Below are positions 28,620-61,478 of a stretch of DNA of 64,000 nucleotides, one piece after another. The position numbers and the translations under genes were made by a program. The notes beneath the pieces are model-generated. The model was not told where the DNA came from, made no database searches, and saw only the letters and a program-made list of their open reading frames with translations. The stretch lies in the sequence record SRR22947725_1805; one strand, 5' to 3'. Each line of letters opens with the position of its first letter. The stretch's first letter is position 1.

Positions 28620-29546
28620 ATGGGTGCGACTAACACCAAGCTCGTCGTCGCCATCAATCCCAGCGCATCGTTTGGGAAAAACGCCTCTGTTGGTGAGCAG
28701 GTGGTCGTGGGGCTTCGAGCCGCTGGATGGGATGTGATTCCCGCACAAGCGGAGAGCCTGGAGGGTGTGAAACGTATTCTCGAGGGAATTCTTGATCCCA
28801 CCCTTCGCGCTCTGGTTGTTGTCGGTGGCGATGGAATGGTTCACATGGGAGTGGATTTTTGCGTTCGCTTAGGGATCCCCTTGGGGGTGATTCCTTCGGG
28901 AACAGGCAATGACCTTGCCCGACACCTGGGTATACCACTCGACCTCGATGACGCGCTGCGCGCGCTGATTCAAGCGTTAGAGGGTGAACCGCTTGTTGTT
29001 GACCACGGGTTGGCGCGGGGTGGGGACTCTCTTCCGCACCCGTTTGCCTGCGTCCTTTCCGCTGGCTTTGATGCCATCGTGAACGAACGCGCGAATCGGC
29101 TGCGATTCCCCAAGGGTCGACACCGATACACCCTGGCGTTGCTGATCGAGCTGATTAAGCTTCGTCCCCTTTCCTACACGTTGGAGATTGACGGCGTGAA
29201 AGAAACCGGGAAATATCTGCTGGTGGCCGTGGCGAATTCACGAAGCTTTGGCGGCGGGATGAAAGTTACCCCGCAGGCGAGCCTGCAGGATGGACGACTC
29301 GATGTTTTTACCTTGCGACCGCTCTCAAGACTTGCGTTCTTGCGTATTTATCCCCGGGTGTTTGCTGGGACGCATGTCAGTGATCCACGGGTGAGTATTC
29401 GCCAGGCTGAGAGAGTCACGATCGAATGCGAGAGGGTCGTTGCCTACGCCGATGGCGAGGCAGTAGGCCCTTTGCCACTAGATATTTCTGTCATCCCCGG
29501 GGTGCTGAAGGTTTTTGCGCCGGTATTGGCGCGGGACCAGGATTAG
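28620..29546 (+). CDS. diacylglycerol/lipid kinase family (YegS/DgkB-like)
   Basis: INP.A..G, GGDG, PSGTGND.AR, N.RSFGGG, YADGE; start could alternatively be 28569. Confidence 0.9.
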   Translation: MGATNTKLVVAINPSASFGKNASVGEQVVVGLRAAGWDVIPAQAESLEGVKRILEGILDPTLRALVVVGGDGMVHMGVDFCVRLGIPLGVIPSGTGNDLARHLGIPLDLDDALRALIQALEGEPLVVDHGLARGGDSLPHPFACVLSAGFDAIVNERANRLRFPKGRHRYTLALLIELIKLRPLSYTLEIDGVKETGKYLLVAVANSRSFGGGMKVTPQASLQDGRLDVFTLRPLSRLAFLRIYPRVFAGTHVSDPRVSIRQAERVTIECERVVAYADGEAVGPLPLDISVIPGVLKVFAPVLARDQD

Positions 29547-29573
29547 TGTCATACTTCCATGTGTTGGTTGAAG

Positions 29574-29646
29574 GGCCCCATCGTATAGCGGCCTAGTACG
29601 CTGCCCTCTCACGGCGGTAACGCGGGTTCGAATCCCGCTGGGGTCA
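29574..29646 (+). tRNA. tRNA-Glu (CTC)
   Basis: Acceptor stem GGCCCCA/TGGGGTC, anticodon loop CT-CTC-AC, GGTTCGAATCC. Confidence 0.96.
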
Positions 29647-29668
29647 CCCTTTCCACACAGCAGGTTTG

Positions 29669-29690
29669 AAGGCCCCCTGGGGGCCTTATT
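29669..29690 (+). terminator. hairpin after tRNA-Glu
   Basis: AAGGCCCC-CTG-GGGGCCTT 8-bp stem with a weak T tail. Confidence 0.5.
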
Positions 29691-29741
29691 CCTCGTACAC
29701 TGGGGGCTTGCTGCGGGGACAGACACGCCCAGGCAGATCGG

Positions 29742-30749
29742 ATGATTGTGGAGTTTCAGGTACCGCTGTGGTTTGAGGTGGGCTCGCTGGTCGTACTTTC
29801 CCTGGTCCTGATTGCGGATCTGATGCTGGCGGTCTGGCGTCCACACGAGCCTTCGACACGCGAATCCGCCCTCTGGGTTAGCTTTTATGTGGTCCTTGCC
29901 CTGGGCTTTGCGTGGTTGATGTTCATCGTCGCCGGAGCGCAATACGGCGCCGAATTCTTGGCAGGTTGGGTCACCGAATACAGCCTCTCGATCGACAATT
30001 TGTTTGTGTTTGTGCTTATCCTGGCTTCGTTCAATGTCCCTCGGAAGTATCAGCAACAGGTGCTGATGATAGGGATTCTGCTGGCCATTGTGTTCCGGGG
30101 TGCCTTCATCCTGCTGGGAGCGGCGTTGATCGCGAGCTTCAGCTGGATCTTCTATGTTTTTGGGGCGTTTCTTGTCGTTGTCGGTGTCCAGCAGTTCTTC
30201 AGCGGCAGAAGCGATGACGTGGAACGAGAAAGCAAGCTCAGCGCTTTCCTCTCTCAGCGACTTGATGTGGTCAATGAATACGACGGACTCAAGCTCCGGA
30301 TCCAGCACCAGGGGAGAAAAGCCTTCACCCCGGTCATCGTGGTGTTGATTGCGCTGGGAACCGCAGACGTAATCTTCGCGGTGGACTCGATCCCTGCCAT
30401 CTATGGAATTACCGAAAGCCCGTTCATTGTCTTTACCGCCAACGTGTTCGCCCTCATGGGTCTGCGTCAGTTGTATTTCTTGCTGGGACACCTCATCGAC
30501 AAACTGGAATACCTGCACTGGGGGATTGCCTTCATCCTGACCTTCATCGGACTCAAGCTTGTCTTCCACGCACTGCACGAAAACGAGCTCCCGTTCCTGA
30601 ACGGCGGGGAGCATATTCTGTGGGCACCAGACATTGGCACCTGGGAATCGTTGATCGTGATTGTCGCCGCTATGGCGGTCGCCGTAATTGCCAGTGTGTT
30701 CAAGCTGCGACAAGACAACAAGCAGGCCGCCCTTCGAAGCAAGGAATAG
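29742..30749 (+). CDS. TerC/Alx family metal homeostasis membrane protein
   Basis: [32 protein letters not shown]. Confidence 0.93.
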
Positions 30750-30831
30750 CCCCTGGGCTAAGCTGAGGGACGCCCTTCCGAGCGACACGAAGGGCACGTC
30801 CGAGGCATCGAGAGAAGAAAGGGTGAAGGTT

Positions 30832-32256
30832 ATGGCTCCACGCACACTCGCCCAAAAGCTATGGGATGACCACCTTGTCGCCCGAGGCGACAACGGAGAA
30901 CCCGACCTTGTCTATATCGACCTCCACCTCGTTCACGAAGTCACCAGCCCCCAAGCTTTTGATGGGCTTCGCGTCGCAGGCAGGCGGGTGCGCCGCCCTG
31001 ATCTGACGATTGCTACCGAAGACCACAACACCCCCACTATCAACATTGACAAGCCCATTGCCGAGCCCACCTCGCGGATTCAAATCGAGACGCTGCGCAA
31101 GAACTGCGAAGAATTTGGGGTTCGGTTGCACTCCTTGGGTGATATCGAACAGGGCATTGTTCACGTGGTCGGGCCCCAGTTAGGCCTCACCATGCCCGGC
31201 ATGACCGTGGTGTGTGGCGATTCTCACACCTCGACCCATGGCGCCTTTGGCGCGATGGCGTTGGGGATTGGAACCAGCGAGGTGGAACACGTCCTGGCCA
31301 CCCAAACTCTGCCGCTAAAGCCCTTCAAGACCATGTCCATCACGGTTGAGGGTGAACTACGGCCCGGGGTGAGCGCTAAGGACATCATCTTGGCGATCAT
31401 CGCAAAGATCGGCACCGGCGGCGGTCAGGGCTATGTCCTGGAATACCGAGGCAGCGCGATTCGCGCTTTGGGCATGGATGGCCGCATGACGATGTGCAAC
31501 ATGTCGATTGAAGCGGGTGCAAGGGCAGGGATCATTGCCCCCGACCAGATCACCTACGACTACGTTCACGGTCGCCCCCACGCTCCCGAAGGGGCTGCGT
31601 GGGACGAGGCCATGGAGTACTGGTCAACACTCCACACCGATGAGGGTGCCGTTTTTGATGCCGAGGTTTTTCTTGACGCGAATGACTTGGAAGCTTTTGT
31701 CACGTGGGGCACTAACCCCGGCCAGGGCGTGTCCCTCAACGGCGTGGTTCCCAACCCTGCCGATATGAGTGATGAGCACGAAAAGGCTGCCGCGTTGCGG
31801 GCCCTGGAATATATGGATTTGAGTCCTGGAACGCGAATGAAAGACATTCCGGTGGACACCGTTTTTATGGGCTCCTGCACCAACTCCCGCCTGGATGACC
31901 TGCGCACCTTTGCCAGCATCATCAAAGGCCACGCGAAAGCAGAAGGGGTGCGGGTGATGGTGGTGCCAGGCTCGGCCAGAGTGCGTTTGGAGGCGGAAGC
32001 CGAAGGAATCGACAAGATTGTGGAGGACTTTGGCGGTGAATGGCGCTTTGCGGGATGTTCCATGTGCCTGGGAATGAATCCTGACCAATTAGCTCCGGGC
32101 GAGCGGGCTGCCTCCACCTCAAACCGCAACTTTGAAGGCCGCCAGGGCAAGGGTGGCAGGACCCACCTGGTGTCGCCGATGGTGGCTGCCGCCACCGCTA
32201 TCCGTGGCACCCTCTCGAGCCCCTCAGATGTCTCAGCAGAAAAGGTCGGTGCCTAG
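30832..32256 (+). CDS. leuC: 3-isopropylmalate dehydratase large subunit
   Basis: [48 protein letters not shown]. Confidence 0.98.
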
Positions 32257-34224: not shown

Positions 34225-34938
34225 ATGAGACGCTCCGCACAGATTCGCTGGCGCCTGATCGCTGCCATCGTTATCCCCGTGTTCGGTGCGATGACGCGGA
34301 TCCGCATCACCCGTGGGTCACTGCCCGCCAAGGGCCCTTTCATCATTTCCCCCAACCACTACAGTGAGATTGACCCCATTGTGATGGGTATCGTCGTGTG
34401 GAAATTGCGGCGAACGCCCCGTTTTCTCGCCAAAGCTGCCTTGTTTCGCGTTCCTGGATTGGGGACCCTGATGCGCTTCACCGGCCAAATCCCGGTGGAG
34501 CGTAACTCTTCCGTGAAGACATCAGAGCCCCTGGAGGCTGCCAAGATTCTTACCTCCCAAGGCAGCGGATTGATTGTCTATCCCGAGGGGACACTCACTA
34601 AAGACGCAGACATGTGGCCCATGACGGGCAAGCTCGGCGCCATGCGCATGGCGTTGCAATCTGATATTCCGCTCTTCCCCGCGGCACACTGGGGCACCCA
34701 CAAACTTATGGGGCGCTATTCCACAAAAATCACTGTCATTCCGCGCTCACAAATTCACGTCATTGTGGGTGAGGAAATGGACCTCTCCGCCTACCGGGGG
34801 AAACCTGTGACGACAGCGTTGCTGGAGCAGGCCACCGAAGATTTGATGCACCACATCGCCGCCCTGGTGGGCGAGCTTCGTGGGGAAAACCCTCCTGCAA
34901 AGCTTCATAACGGTCGGGGAGAGAAGGTTCGGGGATGA
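34225..34938 (+). CDS. lysophospholipid acyltransferase (PlsC-like)
   Basis: NHYSEID (HX4D), FLAK, YPEGT. Confidence 0.9.
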   Translation: MRRSAQIRWRLIAAIVIPVFGAMTRIRITRGSLPAKGPFIISPNHYSEIDPIVMGIVVWKLRRTPRFLAKAALFRVPGLGTLMRFTGQIPVERNSSVKTSEPLEAAKILTSQGSGLIVYPEGTLTKDADMWPMTGKLGAMRMALQSDIPLFPAAHWGTHKLMGRYSTKITVIPRSQIHVIVGEEMDLSAYRGKPVTTALLEQATEDLMHHIAALVGELRGENPPAKLHNGRGEKVRG

Positions 34939-35936
34939 GAAAAGTAGCCGTATTGGGTGCCGGATCGTGGGGCACCACGTTTGCGAAAGTACTCGCGGAT
35001 GGTGAGTCCGAGGTAACCCTCTGGGCGAGACGATCCGAAATCGCCGGCGAAATTCGGGAAAGTAATCGCAACAGCGATTATTTGCCAGGCATCAATCTCC
35101 CCGCTGCGCTCAGCGCCACGGACAATTTGGAAGCGTGCGTGGCAGGGGCGAGCCAGGTGTATATCGCGGTGCCCAGCCAGCATTTGAGACACAACCTCGA
35201 GGCGCTTGCGGGCACTCTTGCCTCCGACGCAATCGTAATTTCGCTCATGAAAGGCGTGGAAGCCGGCACGGGACTGCGCATGAGCGAAGTGCTCACCGCC
35301 GCGGGAGGAATCGCCCCCGATCAAATCGCCGTGGTCAGTGGTCCCAACCTCGCTCTCGAAATCGCGCGCGAACAGCCCACAGCAGCGGTGGCCTCGTCGG
35401 TGAGCCCAGACACGGCGCGGGAGGTCGCGACTGCTGCGACAAATCACTATTTCAAAACCTTCACCAACACCGATGTGGTCGGGACAGAATTCGGCGGGGT
35501 GCTGAAAAATTTGATTGCCGTGGCCGTGGGTATCGCCGATGGTGTCGGATATGGCGAAAATACTAAAGCCAGCATCATCACACGGGGGTTGGCCGAAATC
35601 AGCGCTTTCGCAGCCGCCTTTGGGGCTGACCCCAAAACGATGTCCGGGCTCGCGGGACTGGGTGACTTGATTGCCACCTGCGAATCACCCCTGTCACGGA
35701 ACAACACCGCAGGCCGGCTTCTCGGTCAAGGCCACAGTTTCACTGACGTCGTGAAATCGATGAACCAAACCGCCGAGGGCCTCGCAGCCATCGCCCCGGT
35801 ACTGGAATTGGCGAAAGCCAAAGGTGTGGTGATGCCCATTGTCACCCAGGTCGGCCAAGTTCTTGATGGATCGCGAGACCCGCGGGAACTTGCGCCACAT
35901 TTTGCTACCGACTCTGACCTGCCCGAGGGTGAATAA
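34935..35936 (+). CDS. gpsA: NAD(P)H-dependent glycerol-3-phosphate dehydrogenase
   Basis: GAGSWGT, SGPNLA.E, LKN, GLAGLGDL.ATC....SRN. Confidence 0.96.
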   Translation: MRKVAVLGAGSWGTTFAKVLADGESEVTLWARRSEIAGEIRESNRNSDYLPGINLPAALSATDNLEACVAGASQVYIAVPSQHLRHNLEALAGTLASDAIVISLMKGVEAGTGLRMSEVLTAAGGIAPDQIAVVSGPNLALEIAREQPTAAVASSVSPDTAREVATAATNHYFKTFTNTDVVGTEFGGVLKNLIAVAVGIADGVGYGENTKASIITRGLAEISAFAAAFGADPKTMSGLAGLGDLIATCESPLSRNNTAGRLLGQGHSFTDVVKSMNQTAEGLAAIAPVLELAKAKGVVMPIVTQVGQVLDGSRDPRELAPHFATDSDLPEGE

Positions 35937-35942
35937 CCCGCG

Positions 35943-36671
35943 ATGGCGCTGGCAACACTGTGGGATTCCTCGTTCGTGGGGGAGAAGCACGGCGAAGGGA
36001 ACCCGGAGATCATCGCCCTGCATGGCTGGGGCCGAACGGGCGCTGATTTCTCCCGCGTCTTAGCGGGAACCAACGCTTTGGCCCTTCACCTGCCAGGCTT
36101 TGGCTCCGCACCCCCGCCGCCTGAGCCGTGGTCAACCAGTGAGTATGCCGATCATCTTGCTCGGGCACTAGAGGGACACCCACCCGTAGTTCTGGTGGGA
36201 CACTCCTTTGGCGGACGGGTGGCTCTGCGCCTGGCTGCGCGACACCCCGCGTGCGTGAAGGCGCTCGTTCTCGCGGGAGTGCCTTTTCTGGCTCGATCAG
36301 GTGGGGCAAAACCGCACCTCGCTTTTCGTTTGGGAAAACGGGCCAGAAAACTTGGCCTCATCTCTGAAGCGCGAATGGAGGGGCTTCGCAATAGCTATGG
36401 ATCCACTGACTACCGGGCGGCTCAGGGCGTGATGAGGGGTGTCTTGGTAAAAGCAATTGGCGAAGATTACTTTGTTGACGCCGCCATCGTTCGCGCCCCC
36501 GTCACGCTGGTGTGGGGGGAAAACGATGGGCCTGCGCCACTGTTGGGGGCGCAGAAATCCCTGGAATATTTCCCCCAGGCCACCCTGCGCGTGGTACCCG
36601 GGGCGGGACACCTCCTGGAAGGTAACCTCGAGGAAGCGTTAGCCCAAGCACTCCGAGACCTCGCCGACTAA
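35943..36671 (+). CDS. alpha/beta fold hydrolase (esterase-type)
   Basis: LHGW oxyanion loop, LPGFG, GHSFGG nucleophile, WGEND acid, GAGH catalytic His. Confidence 0.9.
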   Translation: MALATLWDSSFVGEKHGEGNPEIIALHGWGRTGADFSRVLAGTNALALHLPGFGSAPPPPEPWSTSEYADHLARALEGHPPVVLVGHSFGGRVALRLAARHPACVKALVLAGVPFLARSGGAKPHLAFRLGKRARKLGLISEARMEGLRNSYGSTDYRAAQGVMRGVLVKAIGEDYFVDAAIVRAPVTLVWGENDGPAPLLGAQKSLEYFPQATLRVVPGAGHLLEGNLEEALAQALRDLAD

Positions 36672-36679
36672 GGACACCG

Positions 36680-38239
36680 ATGCCCGAGTTAGACACCCTG
36701 GTCTTGTGGGCGGCTGTCGGCTCGGGGTTACTCGTCGCTGCGGCGCAGAATCTGAAGTGGCTTCGGGTCGCCCAGCGCGTCCATTATTTACCCCGCGAGG
36801 TCGCGCGGGTCGAGCGCTTGTGGTTTGATCGCAGACCCCTGGCCGCCCTCTGGTGGACACTCGCTGCAGCCCTCGCGCTGATCTCTGTGCAAGGACCCGC
36901 GTGGTGGGGGATGCCGTGGTTGGCGTGGGGCGCAGTGCTTGCACCGGTGATGATTCTTCCCACGCCCTGGAAACTGTCTTTCAAGGGAACCACCAGCCCG
37001 CTGGCGTGGACCCCTCGATCCCGCCGCGCCTACGGTGGCATTCTGCTGGCACAGGTGTTGGTTGGCCTGCCTGCTGTGTGGGTACTGGGACCCGCCGGAG
37101 CACTGATTCCTCTGCTGTTTACCGCAAATATTGCTGATCTCGTCCTCGGTGGTCTCTGGTATCTCGAGCGATCACTGTCGATGAAGTTCGTGAAGGACGC
37201 CCAGGCAAAACTGAAGAAGGTCAACCCCACGGTGGTAGCTATCACCGGCTCCTATGGAAAAACGTCGACCAAAGGCTATGTCGCCCAGATTGTCGCCGGC
37301 TCTCACCAGGTGGTGGCTTCACCTGCGAGCTTCAACAACATGATGGGTTTGTCGAAAACCATCAACGAACACTTGGTTCCCGGCACCTCGGTCTTTGTTG
37401 CCGAAATGGGCATGAATGCCCCGGGGCGCATTCGAGAGCTTGCCAACTGGTTTCCACCGGATATTTCCGCCATCACCGTCGTTGGCGAAGCCCACATGGA
37501 ACGTTTGGGGTCTAAAGAAGCAATTTTCCGCGCAAAGGCAGAAATCACCGAGCGTGCTCCCATCGTCGTGTTACCCATAGATCAGCCCGAGCTGCGTTCC
37601 CTCGCGGATAAGTGCGAGCGGGCGGGCAAAAGGGTGATCAGGGTGAGCGCCCAGGGCAAGAAAGCCGATGTGGTGGTGGATGTGGATTTGGGGACCCTCC
37701 GCTATGGACCCAAGGCGAATGTTGTTCCTCTTGATATCCCCTCCTTTGGACATGCGGTGAATATTGCCGTAGCGCTGGGGATTGCCCTTGCCCTTGACGT
37801 TGCTGAAGACCAGGCCAAAGCACGGGTTGCCGGCTTGCCTGTTGCCGCGCACCGCGCGGAAGTGGCCGAAAGCAGTGAGGGTGTGCTGATTATCGATGAC
37901 ACCTATAACTCAAACCCCACTGGCGCATCTCACGCTGTCAGCTCGGGCGCCGAGGCTGCGAAAAAACGCAAAGGCCCCTTTATTACTGTTACACCCGGGA
38001 TGGTGGAGTTGGGGCCTGTGCAGTTTAGGCGTAACCGCGAGCTTGCCGAAGCTGTGATCGCCGCCAATGGCACACTAATGATTGTGGGGCGCACCAACAC
38101 AAAGGCCCTACTGGCGGGGGCAAAAAATACGGCACAAGTGTTTGCGACTCGCCACGAGGCCGTCACCGCTGCCCTCCTGGCAGCGGGAGAGCGGGGCGTT
38201 ATCCTCTATGAGAACGACCTGCCCGATCACTACCCCTAA
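36680..38239 (+). CDS. murF: MurF-like Mur ligase with an N-terminal multi-pass membrane domain
   Basis: ITGSYGKTSTK P-loop, SFNN..G, EMG, H...G......K, IDDTYNSNP, TPGMVELG, ENDLPD; first ~165 aa contain several hydrophobic helices. Confidence 0.8.
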   Translation: MPELDTLVLWAAVGSGLLVAAAQNLKWLRVAQRVHYLPREVARVERLWFDRRPLAALWWTLAAALALISVQGPAWWGMPWLAWGAVLAPVMILPTPWKLSFKGTTSPLAWTPRSRRAYGGILLAQVLVGLPAVWVLGPAGALIPLLFTANIADLVLGGLWYLERSLSMKFVKDAQAKLKKVNPTVVAITGSYGKTSTKGYVAQIVAGSHQVVASPASFNNMMGLSKTINEHLVPGTSVFVAEMGMNAPGRIRELANWFPPDISAITVVGEAHMERLGSKEAIFRAKAEITERAPIVVLPIDQPELRSLADKCERAGKRVIRVSAQGKKADVVVDVDLGTLRYGPKANVVPLDIPSFGHAVNIAVALGIALALDVAEDQAKARVAGLPVAAHRAEVAESSEGVLIIDDTYNSNPTGASHAVSSGAEAAKKRKGPFITVTPGMVELGPVQFRRNRELAEAVIAANGTLMIVGRTNTKALLAGAKNTAQVFATRHEAVTAALLAAGERGVILYENDLPDHYP

Positions 38240-38260
38240 TCGGGGTTACAAGGGGATGTA

Positions 38261-39400
38261 ATGACCAACGCTTATGCCGTCGTATTTGGGGGGCCAAGCC
38301 CCGAGCATGAAATTTCCATCCTCACCGGGCTTCAGGCTGCGAGGGTATTGCACGAGGGTGGGCATGAACCGCTGTCGATCTATATCGCTCCCGGTGGCGC
38401 CTGGTATCAGGTCCCCCCGCAATCCGAGGCGAAAGACTTTCTGACCGGAGCTCCCGCGGGATCCAAAGAGCTCGAGGTGGTGCTCTCCGGTAGTCCAGGT
38501 ATTTATCCCAAAAAAGGAATGGGCAAAAAGGCCCTCGATATTGACTCAGCACTGTTGTGTTTTCACGGTGGCATAGGCGAAGGTGGTGCCGGGGCTTCGG
38601 TATTTTCGATGCTGGGAATTCCCGCGACCGGTTCGAGTGTGTTCGCCGGTGCTGTGGGAATGGACAAGTTAGCGTTTGGCGGCCTGATGATGGCGGCCAG
38701 CATCGCCACGCTGAGGAGGGAAGCACTCTCCCCAGAGCGTGACCCCTCGTTTCCTGGCCCCTACATCGTCAAACCCCGTTTTGGCGGCTCCTCCATTGGT
38801 ATCGAAATCGTCGAAGACATCACCACTGCGCGGACACTGTGCAAAACCTCCCCTCACCTTGCGGCAGGCGCCGTGCTTGAGCCTTATCGGCCGGGACTTG
38901 TCGATTTGAATATTTCTTTTCGGACCTATCCCCAGTTGGAGCTGACCGCACTGGAGCGCCCCTTGCGCCCGGAAGGCGAATCCGGCGTGTATTCCTACCA
39001 GGAAAAGTATTTGGCGGGCGGGAATTCGGGTGCCGGATTGACCCATGCGCCGAGAGAATTTCCCGCCCTTGCCCCCGAGGACATCCACCAGAAAGCCCGG
39101 GAGCTCGCCACCGCCGTGGCGGAGGTCACCCGGTTGAGTGGGATCGTTCGGGTCGATTTGCTGTGGGATGAACAAACGGGAGACGTCTTCGTCAACGAGG
39201 TGAACACTATTCCTGGGGCGCTTTCCCTCTACCTGTGGGCCCCCACCCACAAAGCGCTGACGGTGATTGTTGATGCCCTGACCGAAGCCATTGAGAGGCC
39301 TGTCATCTTCCCGCAGAGTGGGTTTGGTCAAGGCGTTGCGCTGCGGGCAGCCGGGGGTATTGCCGCAAAACTTGTCGGGCTGGGCGGGCCTCAGGCCTAG
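38261..39400 (+). CDS. ddl: divergent D-alanine--D-alanine ligase family ATP-grasp enzyme
   Basis: FGGPSPEHEIS, HG..GE.G, MDK, VKP..GGSSIG, YSY.EKY, RVD, NEVNTIPG; occupies the ddl locus. Confidence 0.82.
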   Translation: MTNAYAVVFGGPSPEHEISILTGLQAARVLHEGGHEPLSIYIAPGGAWYQVPPQSEAKDFLTGAPAGSKELEVVLSGSPGIYPKKGMGKKALDIDSALLCFHGGIGEGGAGASVFSMLGIPATGSSVFAGAVGMDKLAFGGLMMAASIATLRREALSPERDPSFPGPYIVKPRFGGSSIGIEIVEDITTARTLCKTSPHLAAGAVLEPYRPGLVDLNISFRTYPQLELTALERPLRPEGESGVYSYQEKYLAGGNSGAGLTHAPREFPALAPEDIHQKARELATAVAEVTRLSGIVRVDLLWDEQTGDVFVNEVNTIPGALSLYLWAPTHKALTVIVDALTEAIERPVIFPQSGFGQGVALRAAGGIAAKLVGLGGPQA

Positions 39401-39870
39401 TTCACAACGTCGGAGATATCCAAGCACTGCGCCACGGGCAGGGACTGGTTTCCCACAGCTCGAGAAAGATCGCGCAACACCTGGGTCCCCGACACCACGG
39501 TGGAATCCACGATGACCTCTGTGGCGGGGTCTAACCCATAGGTGGTGAAAACAAACTGTGGGTCGGCGGTGTCATCTCTGAGCCAATCAAGACCATCGAG
39601 AGTAAAACAGGGTAAAAGGTTGGGACCGGGGCGCTCTAGTCCGCAGCGAATCAACACGGCCGTGGGGTTTCCATACGCTGCCGTGGCCTGAGAGTTGACA
39701 TTGCGCGAGGGAAGATCGGCAACGGTATCCGGCAGGCGAACAATCATGTTGGCGCATTCGGGGGCATTGGCAAATTCGGCGGGGTCGAGATTCACTAACG
39801 GCGCGCAGCCGGCAACGAGGACAGTGCCCAAAAAAACGGCTAAGGCGGGGGCTGTCGCGCGCTTCTTCAC
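39397..39870 (-). CDS. DUF3515-like lipoprotein
   Basis: Lipobox VAGC, LP..V, ATAAYG.P..V..RCG, TTYG..PA.EV; conserved position between ddl and thiL. Confidence 0.75.
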   Translation of the reverse strand: MKKRATAPALAVFLGTVLVAGCAPLVNLDPAEFANAPECANMIVRLPDTVADLPSRNVNSQATAAYGNPTAVLIRCGLERPGPNLLPCFTLDGLDWLRDDTADPQFVFTTYGLDPATEVIVDSTVVSGTQVLRDLSRAVGNQSLPVAQCLDISDVVN

Positions 39871-39894
39871 ACCACTCAGGCTAGCGTGGTGGGT
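39871..39894. promoter_or_regulatory. candidate bidirectional promoter (overlapping -10 boxes)
   Basis: TAGCGT (+, 39882-39887) and TAGCCT (-, 39883-39878) share the central TA; each lies 7 nt from its start codon. Confidence 0.55.
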
Positions 39895-40875
39895 ATGTCA
39901 CCTCCTGAGATAGAGCGCGATGATCAACGCTCCCTCGGCGTTGCTGGCGAAGGGGCGGCGCTGGCCGCCCTCCTTCCCTTGTTGCCCTCAGCAGGCCTGG
40001 CAACACTGGGCCCGGGGGATGATTCTGCGGTACTTGGTGTCCCCGATGGGCGCGTGGTGATCAGCTGCGACATGATGATCGAGGGGCCAGATTTTCGCAG
40101 GGACTGGTCGAGTTTGGGTGATGTGGGATTCAAGGCGATAGCCAGCAACGCCGCTGATATCGCCGCCATGGGGGCTGTCGTAACCGGGTATGAAATTGCG
40201 GTCGCCGCCCCACCAGCTACTACGGTCGGGGAACTCAAAGAGTTAGCCAGGGGTTTTGCCGAGGGGATTGCTGCTCTTACCCCGGGGGCTGGGGTGCTCG
40301 GGGGAGACCTCTCCCGATCCCCAGTGTTCACTATTGCCGTGACAGTTTTGGGTGATCTGGAGGGTTTAGCACCTGTGACGCGAGCGGGTGCTAGGCCCGG
40401 AAATGTGCTGGCCCTCGCGGGAGAGCGGGGTCTGTCCCATCGAGGACTCACCCTCTTGCGGGCAGCGCCAGACGCCGCTGCCCTGCACGCTTTACACGAA
40501 GGGAATTCCTCGGTGGCGCACCACCTGCGGCCGGTTCCTCCGGTTCCTCTCGGCCCTGTGGCAGCACAAGCAGGCGCCACCGCCATGATGGACGTGTCCG
40601 ATGGGCTGGTGCTGGATGCCACCCGAATGGCCCGGGCGAGCGGAGTGCAGATGGAACTTGATTCGGCGCTGGAGTGGGACGAGAGCTCGCTCTTTGGCGG
40701 GGAAGACCATGGACTTCTCGCGTGTTTCCCTGCGGGGGTGGACCTCCCGGCCGGATTTATCGCTATCGGTGTTGTCCAGGGTCCGACCGCACAAGCACCC
40801 GTCGTGCTGGCGGGCTATGACCTTCAGTCTTCGCTGGGCGGTTGGGACCCCTTCGGTGACCACGTCGCAGAGTAA
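39895..40875 (+). CDS. thiL: thiamine-phosphate kinase
   Basis: GPGDDSAV, D..IEG.DF, N.ADIAAMGA, GGD, R.GA.PG, MDVSDGL, GGEDH. Confidence 0.93.
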   Translation: MSPPEIERDDQRSLGVAGEGAALAALLPLLPSAGLATLGPGDDSAVLGVPDGRVVISCDMMIEGPDFRRDWSSLGDVGFKAIASNAADIAAMGAVVTGYEIAVAAPPATTVGELKELARGFAEGIAALTPGAGVLGGDLSRSPVFTIAVTVLGDLEGLAPVTRAGARPGNVLALAGERGLSHRGLTLLRAAPDAAALHALHEGNSSVAHHLRPVPPVPLGPVAAQAGATAMMDVSDGLVLDATRMARASGVQMELDSALEWDESSLFGGEDHGLLACFPAGVDLPAGFIAIGVVQGPTAQAPVVLAGYDLQSSLGGWDPFGDHVAE

Positions 40876-53443: not shown

Positions 53444-54094
53444 GTGGCTGTAAAAATTCGTTTGAAGCGCATGGGCAAGATCCACGCGCCGTACTACCGC
53501 ATCGTCGTCGCCGATTCCCGCACCAAGCGCGACGGTCGTGCGATTGAGGAAATCGGGCTGTATCACCCCACCCAGGACCCTTCGGTCATCGAGATTAACT
53601 CGGAGCGCGCGCTCTACTGGTTAGGTGTTGGCGCACAGCCCACCGAGCAGGTCGCAGCACTGTTGAAGCTCACCGGTGATTGGGGCAAGTTCAAGGGCGA
53701 CAAGAACGCCAAGAGCACCGTCAAGTTTGCCGAGCCCAAGGTGGCATTCGCCGCTGATGCGAAGAAGAAGCCTGTGTTGCGCCCGAAGGCCGCGAAGCCT
53801 GTCGAGGAAACACCTAAGGCAGATGCTCCTGTGGAAGACGCTCCAGCAGAAGCACCCGTTGCTGACGCTGAGGTCGTAGCAGAAGCACCAGCAGCCGTGG
53901 AAGAAACCACTGACGCTCCTGCTGCAGAAGCCCCCGCCGAAGAGGCTCCCGCAGCCCAAGAGGCACCAGTGGAAGCACCTGCTGAGGAAGCCGCTCCCGA
54001 AGCGCCCGCAGCTGAGGAAGCCGCACCGGAGGCACCTGCCGACGAGGCAGCCGCTGAGGAAGCTCCCGCCGAAGACGTTAAGCCCGGCGAATAG
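53444..54094 (+). CDS. rpsP: 30S ribosomal protein S16 with a long acidic low-complexity tail
   Basis: [32 protein letters not shown] start after a GGAG RBS. Confidence 0.96.
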
Positions 54095-54096
54095 TC

Positions 54097-54333
54097 ATGT
54101 TGGATCGTGCGCTGAATCACCTTGTCCGGGAAATCGTTGATAACCCGGACGAGGTCAGTGTCACGGTGGTGGACACCCCTCGCGGTGAACTCCTCGAGGT
54201 TCGGGTTCACCCTGATGACTTGGGTCGTGTGATTGGCCGTGCCGGTCGCACGGCGAAAGCGTTGCGCACACTGGTTAATGCGTTGGCGGATGGCCGCAAG
54301 GTCAGAGTCGATGTCGTCGATACCGACAGCTAA
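54097..54333 (+). CDS. khpA: KH-domain RNA-binding protein KhpA
   Basis: DLGRVIGRAGRTA.ALRT; between rpsP and rimM. Confidence 0.92.
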   Translation: MLDRALNHLVREIVDNPDEVSVTVVDTPRGELLEVRVHPDDLGRVIGRAGRTAKALRTLVNALADGRKVRVDVVDTDS

Positions 54334-54911
54334 TGCCTGCTGGCTCCCCGCCCATTGCACCTAGGCCGGAGGCAGTGGAACTCCGCGTCGCACGCCTGGT
54401 CCGAGCCCACGGGCTAAAAGGCGGGTTGAAGCTTGAGGTCTATACCGACGACCCTGAACTTCGATTCACGGTGGGCAGCGAGTTTAAGCTTCAGGTTCCG
54501 ACTGATTCGCCGTGGTTGGGTAAAACGCTGACACTGGCGAGTATCCGGGAAGTGAATTCGTCCCCGGTGGCCTTTTTCGAAGGAATTGAGGATCGTGATG
54601 CGGCCGAAAGCATCGCGAAAGCGATTCTTTGGATCGAACACGACCCTGCGACGAGGCCCACGGAGAAGGACGCCTGGTTTGACCATGAACTGGTCGGGCT
54701 TTCGGTGATGCGGGAGGGAGTGTCGGTCGGAACAATTTCTCGACTGGAGCATTTCCCAGGCCAAGACCTGCTTGTGGTGGAGACACCCGCGGGAGAGGTC
54801 CTGCTGCCGTTTGTAGCGGCTTTTGTGCCACAGGTGGATGTCGCTGGCGGAAGCGTGACCATTACCCCGCCCGGTGGGCTGTTTGAGTCGCTGGAAGAGG
54901 CTGAGGGATAA
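54333..54911 (+). CDS. rimM: ribosome maturation factor RimM
   Basis: AHGLKG, TDDPE.RF, L.G..V, PFV...VP.VD, PPGGLF. Confidence 0.95.
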
Positions 54912-54915
54912 GCCG

Positions 54916-55596
54916 GTGAAGATCGATATTGTCAGCATCTTCCCCGAAATTTTTGATGCCCTCGATGTGTCCCTGATGGGGAAAGCCACAGCTTCGCAGT
55001 TGCTGGATCTCTCCATTACGAACCTGCGGGACCATGCCACCGGAGTGCATAAGAGTGTGGATGACACACCCTATGGCGGCGGGGCGGGTATGGTCATGTC
55101 ACCCGAGGTGTGGGGGAACGCTCTGGATCCGCTGGTAACGCCTGGGTCTGTGCTGATTGTTCCCACCCCTGCGGGGGCTCTCTTTACCCAGGAGACCGCC
55201 ACCCAGTTGGCGCAAGCCGAGCACCTCGTCTTTGCCTGTGGGCGGTATGAAGGAATTGATCAGCGAGTCGTGGAGCACTACTCGGAGGACACTACGGTGA
55301 TGGAGCTCAGTGTGGGGGATTATGTCCTCAACGGTGGCGAAGTGGCCGTGCTGGTGATGCTCGAGGCCATTGTGCGATTGATGCCAGGTTTTATGGGCAA
55401 TCCCGAGTCGTTGTCTGAAGAGAGCCACGAATCAGGATTGCTGGAGTATCCCTCCTTCACCAAACCGCGCCACTGGCGGGGTTTAGATGTTCCCGAGGTC
55501 CTGCTCTCGGGCAATCACGAAGCTATTCGCCAGTGGCGTCACGAGCAGTCGCTGGCAAGAACTAAGGCTATGCGCCCGGACTTACTGGCGGATTAG
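54916..55596 (+). CDS. trmD: tRNA (guanine37-N1)-methyltransferase
   Basis: [38 protein letters not shown]. Confidence 0.97.
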
Positions 55597-58698: not shown

Positions 58699-59622
58699 AT
58701 GAACGATGACAGCTCTCGCATCGCCTGGGGAATGATCGCTCACCCCGGTGATGTGCTCGCTCGGGACGTGTGTGAACTGTTTGGGCCAGCGGAAGCATTG
58801 GCGCGGGTGCTTGCTTCCCGCTCGCATGCGGCGACCCTGTCCCTTGTGAGGGGGGAGGTGACCGGAGGAGATCGAAAGCACCTGGGAACGTTGCAGGAGC
58901 GATACGACGCTGACGGGGTCTCTGCCTCACTTCTCCAGCAAGTCCGGGCGGGAATCGGCGTCCTCCACCCTTCGCACCCGGCCTGGCCCGCCAGGCTTGC
59001 GGACTTGGGAGATGCGGCACCGCTCGCACTCTGGTTCAGGGGGAACCCTGAGGCAGCGACGACCCTTCCTGTGCTTGCTGTTGTGGGAAGTAGGCGACCC
59101 AGCGGTGCGGGGCTGGGAAACGCAACCAGCATTGTGGCCGGAACATGGAGCGAAGGGGTCGCCATCCTCTCGGGGGGAGCCGCGGGGATTGATACGGTGG
59201 CGCATCAGGCAAGCCTGATTCACCAGAGGGTGCCCCTCTGCGTCCTCGCGGGCGGGTTGGAATCGGTATATCCGAGCGAAAACACCGCGCTGATGAGCCA
59301 GATTGAGGAGCGCGGGGCTATTTTCTCTGAAGCGCCCTGTGGGCTGCGGATTCGGCCAGAACGTTTTCTGGCCAGGAATCGCCTGATTGCGGCGCTGTCT
59401 GACGGTGTCGTGGTGGTGGAGGCCGCCTATCGCTCGGGAGCCATCAACACCGCCCATCACGCGGCGGGACTGGGCCGACAGATTGGTGTGGTTCCGGGGC
59501 GGTGGGGCGACCCTGCAGCCAGAGGATGTTTCCGGATTGCTCGTGACGTGGGGGCAATGGTGTTGACTGAGGCGGCAGATGTGGGTTTTTTGCTCCCGGG
59601 GATGCCAGGCGTCCACGCCTAA
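58699..59622 (+). CDS. dprA: DNA-processing protein DprA (no C-terminal winged-helix domain)
   Basis: P..L..RG, AVVGSR, SGGA.GID..AH, F..RNR.IA.LS, VVEA..RSG...TA..A...GR. Confidence 0.9.
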   Translation: MNDDSSRIAWGMIAHPGDVLARDVCELFGPAEALARVLASRSHAATLSLVRGEVTGGDRKHLGTLQERYDADGVSASLLQQVRAGIGVLHPSHPAWPARLADLGDAAPLALWFRGNPEAATTLPVLAVVGSRRPSGAGLGNATSIVAGTWSEGVAILSGGAAGIDTVAHQASLIHQRVPLCVLAGGLESVYPSENTALMSQIEERGAIFSEAPCGLRIRPERFLARNRLIAALSDGVVVVEAAYRSGAINTAHHAAGLGRQIGVVPGRWGDPAARGCFRIARDVGAMVLTEAADVGFLLPGMPGVHA

Positions 59623-59631
59623 GCTGGGGGT

Positions 59632-60570
59632 ATGAGCTCGTTTGGCCAACACCCCTCCGCAGAGCACGTCGTGGTGCACATCAGTGACACTCACCTTCTG
59701 GCGGGGAATGCCAAGCTGTATGGATCCATCGACTCTGATGCGCCCCTGAGGCTGCTGATGGAACGCTTGGTGGCCAGCGGAATCACCATAGACGCCCTGG
59801 TCTTCACCGGAGACTTGGCGGATCGAGGAGAAGAGGACGCCTATCGGCGTCTGCGCTCTTTGGTCGAACCCTGGGCGACAAAGCTCAACACCCAGATTGT
59901 GTGGGTAATGGGAAACCACGATGAGAGGGAAGCCTTTTCATCGGTTTTGACACGCAGCGAGCCCTCGTCCGCTCCCCAGGATGCTGTCTCTGTCGTGAAT
60001 GGCCTCAGAATTATTGCCCTCGATACTTCTGTGCCCGGCTATCACCACGGCGAATTGACACTGGCCCAGTTGGAATGGCTCGCCAGAGAACTGGAAACGC
60101 CTGCGGAAAAAGGTACCCTCTTAGCTCTCCACCATCCACCCATCCCCACCCCGATTGAACTGATGGGCCTCATTGAATTGGAGGACCAGGCGGCGCTTGC
60201 CGCGGTGGTTCGAGGCAGCGATGTCCGGGGAATTTTGGCGGGACATTTGCACTATTCCACCTATTCGACTTTTGCCGGCGTCCCCATCTCGGTGGCGGCT
60301 GCAGCCTGTTACAACATCGATTTGATCGCTCCCTCCACCACCATTTTGTCGGCAAAAACTACGGGACTCGCAGCGTCTCTGGTGCACGTGTATCCCGAAC
60401 AGGTGGTGTTTTCCGAGGTCCCCCTGGACGACGTTTCCGAAATCATGTCCTACGACGCGAGCTACCGCTCCGTGGTTGAGGCGATGAGTGCCGAGGAGCG
60501 CAAGGCGATGTTTTCGAAGAAGGATTCGGAGTTTAATTCCCACGCAGATCAGGTTCAATCCGGTTCGTGA
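59632..60570 (+). CDS. metallophosphoesterase (CpdA/Icc/GpdQ-like phosphodiesterase)
   Basis: SDTH, GDLAD, GNHD, HHPP, GHLH. Confidence 0.9.
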
Positions 60571-61478
60571 TGGAGCCGTTGCGCCAGCTGTCTAGGCGGT
60601 ACTGCCAGGAATTGGCAGATTCCAGGACGCTGTCAGAGAACTCGCTCAAAGCCTATGAAGGCGACGTAGGACAACTGGTGGAGTATGCCATCACCCAGAG
60701 GGTGGAGCAGGCGGGTGAGCTCGATACCGAACTGTGTCGATCGTGGGTGTGGTCCCTGGCCGAATCGGGTATTGCCGCAGCGTCGCTGCGGCGAAAAGTA
60801 TCCTCTCTCAAGGGCTTTACCCACTGGCTAGGTCTTCAGGGTCACACCACAGGGGATGTGGGGGTGCGAGTGGCAGCGCCCAAAGCGCAACAGTCGTTAC
60901 CCAGAGTTCTCTCCAGAGCACATATGGACCACATTCTGGATGGCCTTGAAGCCGCGGCACAGGGTGACGACCCAGTGGCTCTCAGAAACGCAGCCATCAT
61001 TGAGCTCCTCTATGCCACGGCGATGCGGGTCAGCGAATTGACTTCGCTCACACTGGACCATTGTGACGCTTCGGCTCTCACGGTTAAAGTTCTCGGAAAA
61101 GGGAACAAAGAACGCATGATTCCCCTGGGTCGTCCCGCTCAGGTTGCGCTCGATCGATATGTGGCATCGGGCAGGCCGGCTCTGGCTGAGGCAGAGTCGG
61201 GAGAAACCGTTTTTCTTTCCCGTCTGGGAAAAGCAATGGGTTCGCGCAGTGTTTACCAGGTGGTGGCGACGCTGTTGGCCGATATGGGAGGCGACGGGCC
61301 GCTGGGCCCGCATACTCTTCGACACACGGCGGCGACCCATCTCTTGGATGGCGGAGCTGATTTGCGCAGCGTTCAAGAACTATTGGGCCACTCATCGCTG
61401 GGCACGACACAGATTTATACCCACGTCTCAATCGAGCGCCTGAAAGGCGCCTACGACACAGCCCACCCTCGGGCGTAA
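60567..61478 (+). CDS. xerC: tyrosine recombinase XerC
   Basis: R.SEL, GKG.KER, HTLRH..ATHLL.GGADLR.VQELLGH....TT.IY, HPRA; conserved position after dprA. Confidence 0.93.

Follow-up and report, generated by a model that had tools for sequence, protein, structure and literature searches.

A membrane-type MurF with a paired α/β hydrolase and a divergent Ddl at the ddl site of a Microbacteriaceae chromosome

Results

Three genes between gpsA and the DUF3515 gene

The stretch of DNA analyzed here, 64,000 nt of sequence record SRR22947725_1805 (the window, in whose positions all coordinates are given), comes from a Microbacteriaceae chromosome, probably of the genus Pontimonas, and carries a trio of genes between gpsA and a DUF3515 gene. 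The trio, or module, encodes an EstV-like α/β hydrolase of 242 amino acids (35943..36671, +), a MurF-like protein of 519 amino acids (36680..38239, +) and a divergent D-Ala-D-Ala ligase (Ddl) of 379 amino acids (38261..39400, +). The three genes are co-oriented, with gaps of 6, 8 and 21 nt from gpsA to the hydrolase gene, on to the MurF gene and on to ddl, and the last of them ends at 39400 in a 4-nt overlap with the convergent DUF3515 gene on the minus strand. An initial annotation made from the letters of the sequence had described this tight packing, which the open reading frames (ORFs) and the junction sequences confirm, and had stated that no ordinary ddl is present at this locus; the trio does occupy the gpsA–DUF3515 site. 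Statements about whole genomes rest on the nearest genome, G001 (1.3 Mb, 97% complete), whose three proteins are 97–99% identical to those of the window, and on its relatives.

A membrane domain in place of MurF domain 1

MurF is the textbook case of a soluble three-domain enzyme, and a drug target. Two of its domains are readily found in the MurF-like protein, where the linker helix, the central domain and the C-terminal domain are encoded at 37160..38239 (+). Pfam places the central Mur ligase domain (Mur_ligase_M, PF08245, E = 2.7e-27) at residues 188–334 and the C-terminal domain (Mur_ligase_C, PF02875, 8.2e-09) at residues 391–509, and has no match in residues 1–187. The murF profile TIGR01143 matches residues 174–509 with 183.8 bits, against a cut-off of 288.6, and covers positions 65–402 of its 418. 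Solved MurF chains align with the protein only from their residue 68–120 on. By the profile start and these structure alignments, domain 1 of the three-domain Mur ligase fold is missing. The catalytic part is well kept: the P-loop TGSYGKTSTK occupies residues 189–198 (37244–37273), with T189, G190, S191, K194, T195 and K198 invariant in 96 MurF-like sequences, and the C-terminal motif NDLPDHYP is retained family-wide.

The N-terminal membrane domain, residues 1–160 (36680..37159, +), was delimited by hydropathy, Lys+Arg counts and AlphaFold2 modeling and has no Pfam match. Hydropathy indicates five hydrophobic helices. Among the loops, Lys and Arg are found only in loop 1 (8 together), loop 3 (5) and the linker (6), and from hydropathy and this charge distribution an N-out/C-in topology is predicted, with the ligase domains in the cytoplasm. 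The AlphaFold2 model, built with 96 sequences (pLDDT 95.3, pTM 0.92), has six helices within residues 2–181 (2–33, 40–51, 53–76, 79–92, 112–146 and 148–181), followed by the two ligase domains. Across 96 diverse sequences, Q32, Y36 and R113 never vary and E34, W48, T111, P161 and E163 hardly do; all of these residues sit in predicted cytoplasmic loops, with Q32, Y36, W48, T111 and R113 in two basic loops. At least three hydrophobic segments are found in the N-terminal domain of 84 of 85 family members. The membrane part, about 160 residues long, is itself a conserved domain; it replaces the N-terminal domain of MurF and is not a mere added anchor. When the model of this domain alone (pLDDT 93.6) was compared with 48,161 solved chains, the best matches, at Z 5.9, were unrelated helical proteins, and a search of the ESM Atlas with residues 1–175 gave best scores of 0.87–0.88 to unnamed clusters of 173–195 amino acids, of which the first listed is from Campylobacterota, a lead only.

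A ligase of this build could instead be a recycling or modifying enzyme of the Mpl-like or MurT-like kind, with true MurF activity supplied by another protein. It would share the lack of the N-terminal domain with MurT, which acts on lipid II, and its score lies under the MurF cut-off. Its nearest sequences and folds are nonetheless those of MurF and not of Mpl, MurC or MurT. In the NCBIfam ranking it is closer to MurF than to MurC, MurD, MurE, Mpl or FolC, with no MurT model among its matches at E ≤ 0.001. Its sequence matches in the PDB are MurF chains and one multifunctional fusion protein, 8f5d (best E 1.4e-23), and ranks 1–10 in Foldseek are all MurF (best E 2.9e-20, about 365 columns). 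The gene is moreover coupled to ddl, the murF of the division and cell wall (dcw) cluster has decayed in carriers of the module only, and no other candidate MurF was found in G001, in the same-genus genome G015, in five genomes from other phyla or in 31 carriers from a phylum-wide sample. A recycling role is therefore very improbable. Because the protein lacks the N-terminal domain and scores below the curated cut-offs, we file it as a ligase that would work like MurF in a variant architecture.

An intact hydrolase

The hydrolase matches Pfam Abhydrolase_6 (4.4e-20) and also Abhydrolase_1. Its predicted catalytic triad is Ser88 (36204–36206), Asp195 (36525–36527) and His223 (36609–36611), and H87, S88, G90, D156, Y157, G192, D195 and H223 are invariant in all 81 orthologues. 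The motifs HGW, GHSxGG (the nucleophile elbow) and a family-specific GSxDY are present, with Arg165 invariant, and a 79-row alignment (A3) agrees. With a Ser-Asp-His triad invariant in 81 of 81 sequences, the hydrolase is predicted to be catalytically intact. No hydrophobic window was found in the protein, and for this reason it is taken as cytoplasmic. The EstV family lipase model NF058580 matches it with 57.6 bits over profile positions 25–218 of 230, below the cut-off of 300; the same model is the top NCBIfam match for 11 of 12 module hydrolases from other lineages, at 55–140 bits, all under 300. The ESM Atlas returned only generic α/β hydrolase clusters. A role for the hydrolase as supplier of D-Ala was considered and is made unnecessary by alanine racemase, which scores over its cut-off in five of five carriers tested.

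A divergent Ddl with the residues of a D-Ala-D-Ala ligase

Both Pfam Ddl domains are present in the third protein (PF01820, 7.1e-16; PF07478, ATP-grasp, 1e-16), and it scores 146.9 bits on TIGR01205, under the cut-off of 245.65. Alignments to solved Ddl enzymes and to relatives show that the motifs SPEHEIS (E16), GSS, EKY, R..D and NEVNTIPG are kept. So is the omega-loop Lys-Tyr, the pair that separates D-Ala-D-Ala from D-Ala-D-Lac ligases. The protein differs from the ordinary Ddl of the family in a GEDG to GEGG change, a longer omega loop and a C-terminal extension, in which a hydrophobic-moment scan for an amphipathic tail was unremarkable. It belongs to the module's Actinomycetota clade, which stands on a branch of length 1.61 in a tree whose non-module rows are Microbacteriaceae sequences only.

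G001 encodes a second Ddl elsewhere in its genome, a DdlB-type protein of 314 amino acids (NF002378, 254.4 bits against a cut-off of 243). This short Ddl gene lies on contig C62 (L013:4112-6361, −), right after a gene for a 434-aa pyridoxal phosphate-dependent aminotransferase/MocR-like protein and near parA, parB and trxB. A short DdlB-type Ddl is also found in five of five carriers tested (203–232 bits, frames of about 314–387 amino acids) and in many non-carriers, and two Ddl genes appear to be usual in Microbacteriaceae.

The initial annotation had proposed that the trio is an alternative stem-peptide system with a D-Ala-D-Lac, D-Ala-D-Ser or other terminus, in which the hydrolase edits or supplies the dipeptide and glycopeptide or D-cycloserine sensitivity is changed. 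Such a role would suit the divergence of the Ddl (146.9 against 245.65 bits, and the long branch), its longer omega loop and its GEGG motif, as well as the second short Ddl, which could provide ordinary D-Ala-D-Ala, and an esterase-type hydrolase would fit an ester-linked depsipeptide (EstV, PMC3741291). The details of the sequence point the other way. The omega-loop Lys-Tyr and the other residues of D-Ala-D-Ala ligases are retained, and Van-type NCBIfam models reach only 46–79 bits on the Ddl against cut-offs of 495–775. None of the ORFs scanned in the window has a Pfam match to vanH, vanX, vanXY or vanRS, so the neighbors scanned hold no VanH- or VanX-like gene. In other phyla the module Ddl is the sole Ddl (in four of five genomes), and one such protein matches Staphylococcus aureus Ddl at 236 bits. 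Alanine racemase is present, and the module MurF, being the only MurF, must serve normal wall synthesis. We regard an altered terminus as quite unlikely, and this part of the initial annotation as not borne out.

The only MurF of the genome

The best TIGR01143 match in G001 is the module MurF (187.7 bits); the five lower ones belong to MurE, MurC, MurD2, a MurT-like protein and FolC. G015, a complete genome of the same genus, has a single murF-profile match. The dcw cluster of G001 is contiguous and reads ftsI-murE-[160-aa ORF]-mraY-...-murG-murC-ftsQ-ftsZ, where the 160-aa ORF aligns to residues ~349–435 of the canonical MurF of the family at 30–38% identity. Two larger carrier genomes, G137 and G083, have a longer murF remnant after murE, which corresponds to residues ~208–460 and is 45–48% identical to the MurF of G095. 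By these profile matches, the genome has no MurF besides the membrane-type one. The initial annotation had placed the normal murF in the distant dcw cluster and had found no ordinary ddl at this locus; elsewhere in G001, murF survives as a remnant only, and for ddl the second, short DdlB-type gene is present.

A canonical murF and Ddl gene pair, about 1–1.5 kb apart and outside both the dcw and gpsA sites, occurs in G173 (L117:5252-8705) and in G162 (L135:4284-7314); in G173 it coexists with the module. The decay of the dcw murF can thus be traced stepwise, from the extra pair outside dcw in G173, through the roughly 250 residues left in G137 and G083, to the 160-aa ORF in the genus of the window.

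Other Mur ligase genes of G001 were seen in passing. The dcw cluster, on contig C75, holds only a short MurD-like ORF of 344 amino acids (L012:4540-5574; 47 bits on the N-terminal murD profile). On contig C2 (L004:6-2565) a MurL-like epimerase gene (NF041275, 318 bits against 700) lies right before a full MurD (278 bits, over the cut-off). This arrangement seems to resemble the MurD2/MurL route, in which L-Glu is added and then epimerized, so that a second pathway step would be rewired. On contig C28 (L005:1360-2628) a 422-aa Mur-ligase-family ORF follows a sigma factor gene and has a weak MurT match, 93.8 bits against 800, in its N-terminal part only.

The module in other phyla

Of 1.84 billion cluster representatives, 846 match the MurF type at E ≤ 1e-30. 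The best 150 of these are mostly 490–570 amino acids long and align from residue 3–25. The names attached to 20 clusters that were looked up are Acidimicrobiales, Dehalococcoidia, Muribaculaceae and Bacteroidota only. Named genome contigs supplied 80 loci with a membrane-type MurF, taken around MurF only. They come from Acidimicrobiia, Coriobacteriia (Senegalimassilia), Bacillota, Bacteroidota, Poribacteria, Chloroflexota, Acidobacteriota, Pseudomonadota, Bdellovibrionota, Spirochaetota, Rhodothermota and Balneolota, and none comes from Campylobacterota.

The hydrolase gene lies directly upstream of MurF on the same strand in 72 of the 80 loci and Ddl directly downstream in 55, with both in 52; the co-occurrence of the three genes, which the initial annotation had placed in Helicobacter and Campylobacter, is widespread. 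Ddl is nearby in another arrangement in eight further loci, five of them divergent upstream. No Ddl match was found in 17 of the 80, at least four of these near a contig end, and no hydrolase match in eight of the 80. In our own ORF calls, the hydrolase stop and the MurF start overlap by 4 nt in 14 loci. The hydrolase is tied to MurF more tightly than ddl is (72 against 55 of 80 loci). Lists of 120 and 150 proteins contained no fusion of hydrolase and MurF, which is weak evidence either way. One protein of 922 amino acids (P0291, a cluster of one member) combines a Mur-ligase central domain with both Ddl domains in what looks like a MurF–Ddl fusion, and could be an artefact of assembly or gene calling.

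These neighborhoods bear on the possibility that only MurF and Ddl are housekeeping enzymes and that the hydrolase is a general short-chain esterase or lipase, with a role of its own in the metabolism of lipids or small esters and linked to the two only through an ancient operon. The Helicobacter pylori enzyme EstV is characterized only as a carboxylesterase with a preference for C2–C6 p-nitrophenyl esters (PMC3741291). Eight of the 80 loci have no hydrolase match beside MurF, and in the window the lipid genes plsC and gpsA belong to the same operon. An independent esterase would hardly be expected to keep same-strand adjacency to MurF in 72 of 80 loci and at least ten phyla, much more tightly than Ddl does and often with overlapping stop and start codons. 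Within Microbacteriaceae it co-occurs exactly with MurF and Ddl, in the same 12 of 151 genomes, and its tree agrees with theirs. In other phyla, where the neighbors are not plsC and gpsA, it is still beside MurF. An independent role is in our estimate rather unlikely.

Five genomes, from Bacillota, Poribacteria, Pseudomonadota, Acidimicrobiia and Chloroflexota, have no over-cut-off murF besides the membrane type (182–271 bits). Each has exactly one Ddl, which lies beside or close to MurF in four of the five and passes the Ddl cut-off in three (252–300 bits). Since the module Ddl outside Actinomycetota is the sole Ddl, passes the cut-off in three of five genomes and, in Bacillota, resembles S. 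aureus Ddl (236 bits), it is read as an ordinary Ddl. The idea that module Ddl enzymes form a special subfamily was rejected on the same Bacillota match.

Within Actinomycetota, the membrane-type MurF was found in 31 of 301 sampled genomes, among them all 21 genomes of family code f22, all three of f37 and one from another family in the order of the window organism (50% identity). The best TIGR01143 E-values in these 31 carriers are only 8.5e-46 to 7.5e-74, as the single match in 30 of them, and a murF match over the cut-off is present in 254 of the 301. The 31 carriers and f22 include seven unpublished genomes (G195, G211, G241, G312, G365, G415 and G427), and the 254 include three more (G275, G281 and G339). 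Membrane-type and canonical MurF are, on these profile matches, mutually exclusive.

Import into a Microbacteriaceae subclade

Within the genus of the window organism, a match to the MurF at E ≤ 1e-5 is present in each of the 25 genomes sampled, and in 23 it is nearly full-length, from residue 1–23 to 519. One of the remaining two genomes is incomplete and has MurF in three pieces, and the other has a 35-residue piece on a short contig. Across the family, an even sample of 151 Microbacteriaceae genomes from 101 genera was examined. The membrane-type MurF (49–99% identity), the module's type of Ddl (62–99%) and the hydrolase (43–97%) occur in the same 12 genomes, from eight genera. In the other 139 genomes, MurF matches have only 27–36% identity and start near residue 170–184, Ddl matches have at most 36% identity (at most 32% where most of the protein is spanned), and no hydrolase was found at E ≤ 1e-25.

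The site of the module is conserved on both sides. The left flank is gpsA (34935..35936, +; NF000942, 422.2 bits) and the right flank is the convergent DUF3515 gene (39397..39870, −; PF12028, 3.3e-16), with thiL (39886..40875, +; NF004351, 279 bits; TIGR01379, 176.7 bits) as further conserved context. The order gpsA-hydrolase-MurF-Ddl lies on one stretch in eight of nine fetched carriers, and in seven of these DUF3515(−) and thiL come after it; in the ninth, G157, the trio locus is split across two contigs. Six non-carriers (five fetched, and G061) have gpsA-ddl-DUF3515(−) at the same site, with thiL next in five of the six, and their ddl products are only 25–27% identical to the window Ddl.

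Quick IQ-TREE runs with SH-aLRT support give one clade of Microbacteriaceae carriers in the MurF tree (support 97) and in the Ddl tree (99). Its sisters are two uncultured Actinomycetota (L047, then L036) within a clade rich in Acidimicrobiia (99, 100), far from the canonical Microbacteriaceae MurF and Ddl (100). The same clade, of 13 rows (98), and the Actinomycetota clade (99) reappear in the hydrolase tree. Because the three trees share one history, the three genes would have arrived as a unit. The comparison supports an import of the module from another actinobacterial lineage into a Microbacteriaceae subclade, in which the resident ddl was displaced. This is much the history that the initial annotation had put forward. 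A horizontal origin agrees with MurF and Ddl trees that place the copies in the Acidimicrobiia-rich clade, away from the ordinary Microbacteriaceae orthologues. Displacement of ddl at its own locus is seen in the synteny of carriers and six non-carriers. That the trio travels as a unit is borne out by its presence in the same 12 of 151 family genomes and by the adjacency of hydrolase and MurF in 72 of 80 loci across phyla.

Gene context and local signals

The window is ordinary chromosome of a small-genome member of the Microbacteriaceae, with genes for fumarase, the glycine cleavage system, leuCD, recG, smc, ftsY and ffh. In Pfam and NCBIfam matches, leuCD-murA-plsC-gpsA precede the trio on its 5′ side and DUF3515(−)-thiL-recG follow on its 3′ side. 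No mobile genes lie near the site, as judged by Pfam matches to the ORFs that were scanned in the 64-kb window. A tyrosine recombinase of the XerC/XerD type (Phage_integrase with a SAM-like N-domain) at 60567-61478 (+) lies 21 kb away and is unlinked to the module. Four long ORFs of the window, all on the minus strand, have no Pfam match at E ≤ 1e-8 (29478-30893, 53614-54360, 54414-55067 and 58927-59919); the first shares sequence with the start of leuC and is perhaps not a gene.

GC content is 0.58–0.63 across the module and 0.56–0.64 in the flanks, with no compositional break. Between the genes of the trio, one promoter-like site compares with 2.3 expected, and seven terminator-like sites with 8.5, so that neither kind is in excess. 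Metatranscriptome contigs from four marine or aquatic libraries in three studies, 95–100% alike, cover parts of all three genes. One single contig corresponds to 35646-36702, across the gpsA–hydrolase–MurF junctions, and another to 37960-38375, across the MurF–Ddl junction. Such cover is a weak hint of expression in the sea, from contigs that may derive from DNA and that show no level or strand, and gaps in the cover carry no meaning.

Discussion

It is likely that the trio represents, in this chromosome, a membrane-type D-Ala-D-Ala branch of peptidoglycan precursor synthesis that is widespread, and that it was imported and is now housekeeping. We call it housekeeping here because the organism has no other MurF and only one further Ddl. 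In the working that we propose, Ddl would make D-Ala-D-Ala and the membrane MurF would add it to the MurNAc-tripeptide precursor at the inner membrane face, next to MraY, with the substrate held by the conserved basic loops of the membrane domain instead of the missing domain 1. The module would have been inserted between gpsA and the DUF3515 gene in place of the resident ddl, and the dcw murF would have decayed afterwards. From the residues kept in both ligases, the product is very probably still UDP-MurNAc-pentapeptide ending in D-Ala-D-Ala.

Several observations weigh against this interpretation. Both MurF and Ddl score under their NCBI curated cut-offs, and as MurF lacks domain 1, the binding of its UDP-linked substrate is unaccounted for. 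The long branch of the Ddl clade (1.61), the change of GEDG to GEGG in the subclade and the second short Ddl would allow a changed role of the Ddl. The statement that the membrane-type MurF is the only one has as its scope G001, which is 97% complete in 80 contigs and stands in for the window's own genome, and one carrier, G173, keeps a canonical pair of murF (385.5 bits) and ddl (290.5 bits) outside the dcw cluster. The history within the family is also less simple than a single import. In a tree of murA and gpsA, two genomes with ordinary ddl, G095 (L126) and G061 (L133), nest among the carriers, and a tree with the carriers held together is rejected at p-AU 0.00037, for a group that was named after inspection of the tree. 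G157 (L115/L116), with the module, and G061, with ordinary ddl at the same site, even share one genus code. Either one gain was followed by a later re-replacement, or relatives recombined across the conserved flanks.

The hydrolase probably has some role coupled to that of MurF. More tentatively, it may be a catalytic partner that, for example, cleaves faulty or ester-linked substrates or products close to the membrane, an editing role for which we draw only on the invariant triad and the short-chain esterase activity of H. pylori EstV. A bolder and rather improbable extension is that MurF and the hydrolase form a two-protein machine at the inner membrane face, in which the loops AQREHY...W and WTxR replace the domain that holds the UDP-sugar, the substrate is a MraY-channelled or lipid-linked MurNAc-tripeptide and the hydrolase proofreads the termini. 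A lipid-linked substrate, suggested by likeness to MurT, seems unlikely to the same degree. If such a machine did exist, all carriers, which make up roughly one in ten of the sampled Actinomycetota and occur in many other phyla, would carry out the last "cytoplasmic" precursor step at the membrane, with an editing enzyme built in.

The locus is most likely housekeeping, yet it exposes a little-studied and widespread form of an essential step. In many lineages the only MurF would be a form that lacks the N-terminal domain, is embedded in the membrane and is almost always accompanied by an intact esterase-like hydrolase, and this form appears able to displace canonical murF and ddl through horizontal transfer. 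For annotators and metabolic modelers there is a warning in that below-threshold calls such as "Mur ligase family protein" and "alpha/beta hydrolase" here hide an essential step. In the open-access literature, we found nothing written on the module across phyla, on the way it excludes canonical MurF or on a transfer to Microbacteriaceae.

Comparison with known systems

The module MurF shares the central P-loop ATP-binding domain and the C-terminal domain with canonical soluble MurF enzymes (E. coli 1gg4, Thermotoga maritima 3zl8, Acinetobacter baumannii 4qf5 and Pseudomonas aeruginosa 4cvk). In contrast, their domain 1, residues 1 to ~67–120, has no counterpart here, and the five-helix membrane domain stands in its place. 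The module MurF is also only 27–36% identical to the MurF of Microbacteriaceae, is encoded outside dcw and is paired with a hydrolase. MurT/GatD, which amidates lipid II, offers a second parallel, as MurT lacks the nucleotide-sugar N-domain and works with a partner subunit of the hydrolase type, a glutaminase. In both systems, a ligase without its N-terminal domain would thus act with a hydrolase-type partner on a membrane-linked precursor. MurT, however, is not embedded in the membrane and has another C-terminal domain and another partner, and G001 contains a separate MurT-like gene.

VanA-type clusters resemble the module in that a Ddl-family ligase stands beside other precursor enzymes and has moved horizontally as a cassette. 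They differ in that the module has no D-Lac or D-Ser ligase signature, no VanH, VanX or VanRS nearby, and a housekeeping character with the sole MurF. In Phocaeicola and Bacteroides, a second murF and ddl are described away from the other mur genes in a paper on a MurF'-Alr chimera (PMC13726279). Three Bacteroidota loci of our survey (L050, L052 and L062) likewise carry hydrolase, membrane-type MurF and Ddl together. The passages of PMC13726279 examined mention neither a membrane domain nor a hydrolase partner, and "hydrolase" occurs 0 times in its main text.

The closest known counterpart is in H. pylori, whose trio we take to be HP0738–HP0740, in the order ddl-hydrolase-murF, with EstV encoded between ddl and murF. 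The presumed order thus differs from the hydrolase-murF-ddl of the window. The module hydrolases reach only 55–140 bits on the EstV model, far under 300, and the Ddl of H. pylori (2pvp) is not especially close, with 54.7 bits to the window Ddl and 102 bits to a Bacillota module Ddl. The likeness lies in the hydrolase family and in the reported membrane nature of MurF. H. pylori MurF is reported to be an inner-membrane protein with four N-terminal transmembrane domains (PMC9448923), where five hydrophobic helices are predicted here, and to be an essential precursor enzyme found in a complex with the membrane protein Csd5 (PMC9507126). EstV is described there as a carboxylesterase that prefers C2–C6 p-nitrophenyl esters (PMC3741291). 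What the initial annotation says of the trio in Helicobacter is thereby upheld only indirectly, through the four transmembrane domains of that MurF and through the EstV model as the best match of 11 of 12 module hydrolases. Two puzzles of H. pylori, the transmembrane helices of its MurF and its orphan esterase EstV, so become one testable question, and one that can be put to harmless, cultivable bacteria.

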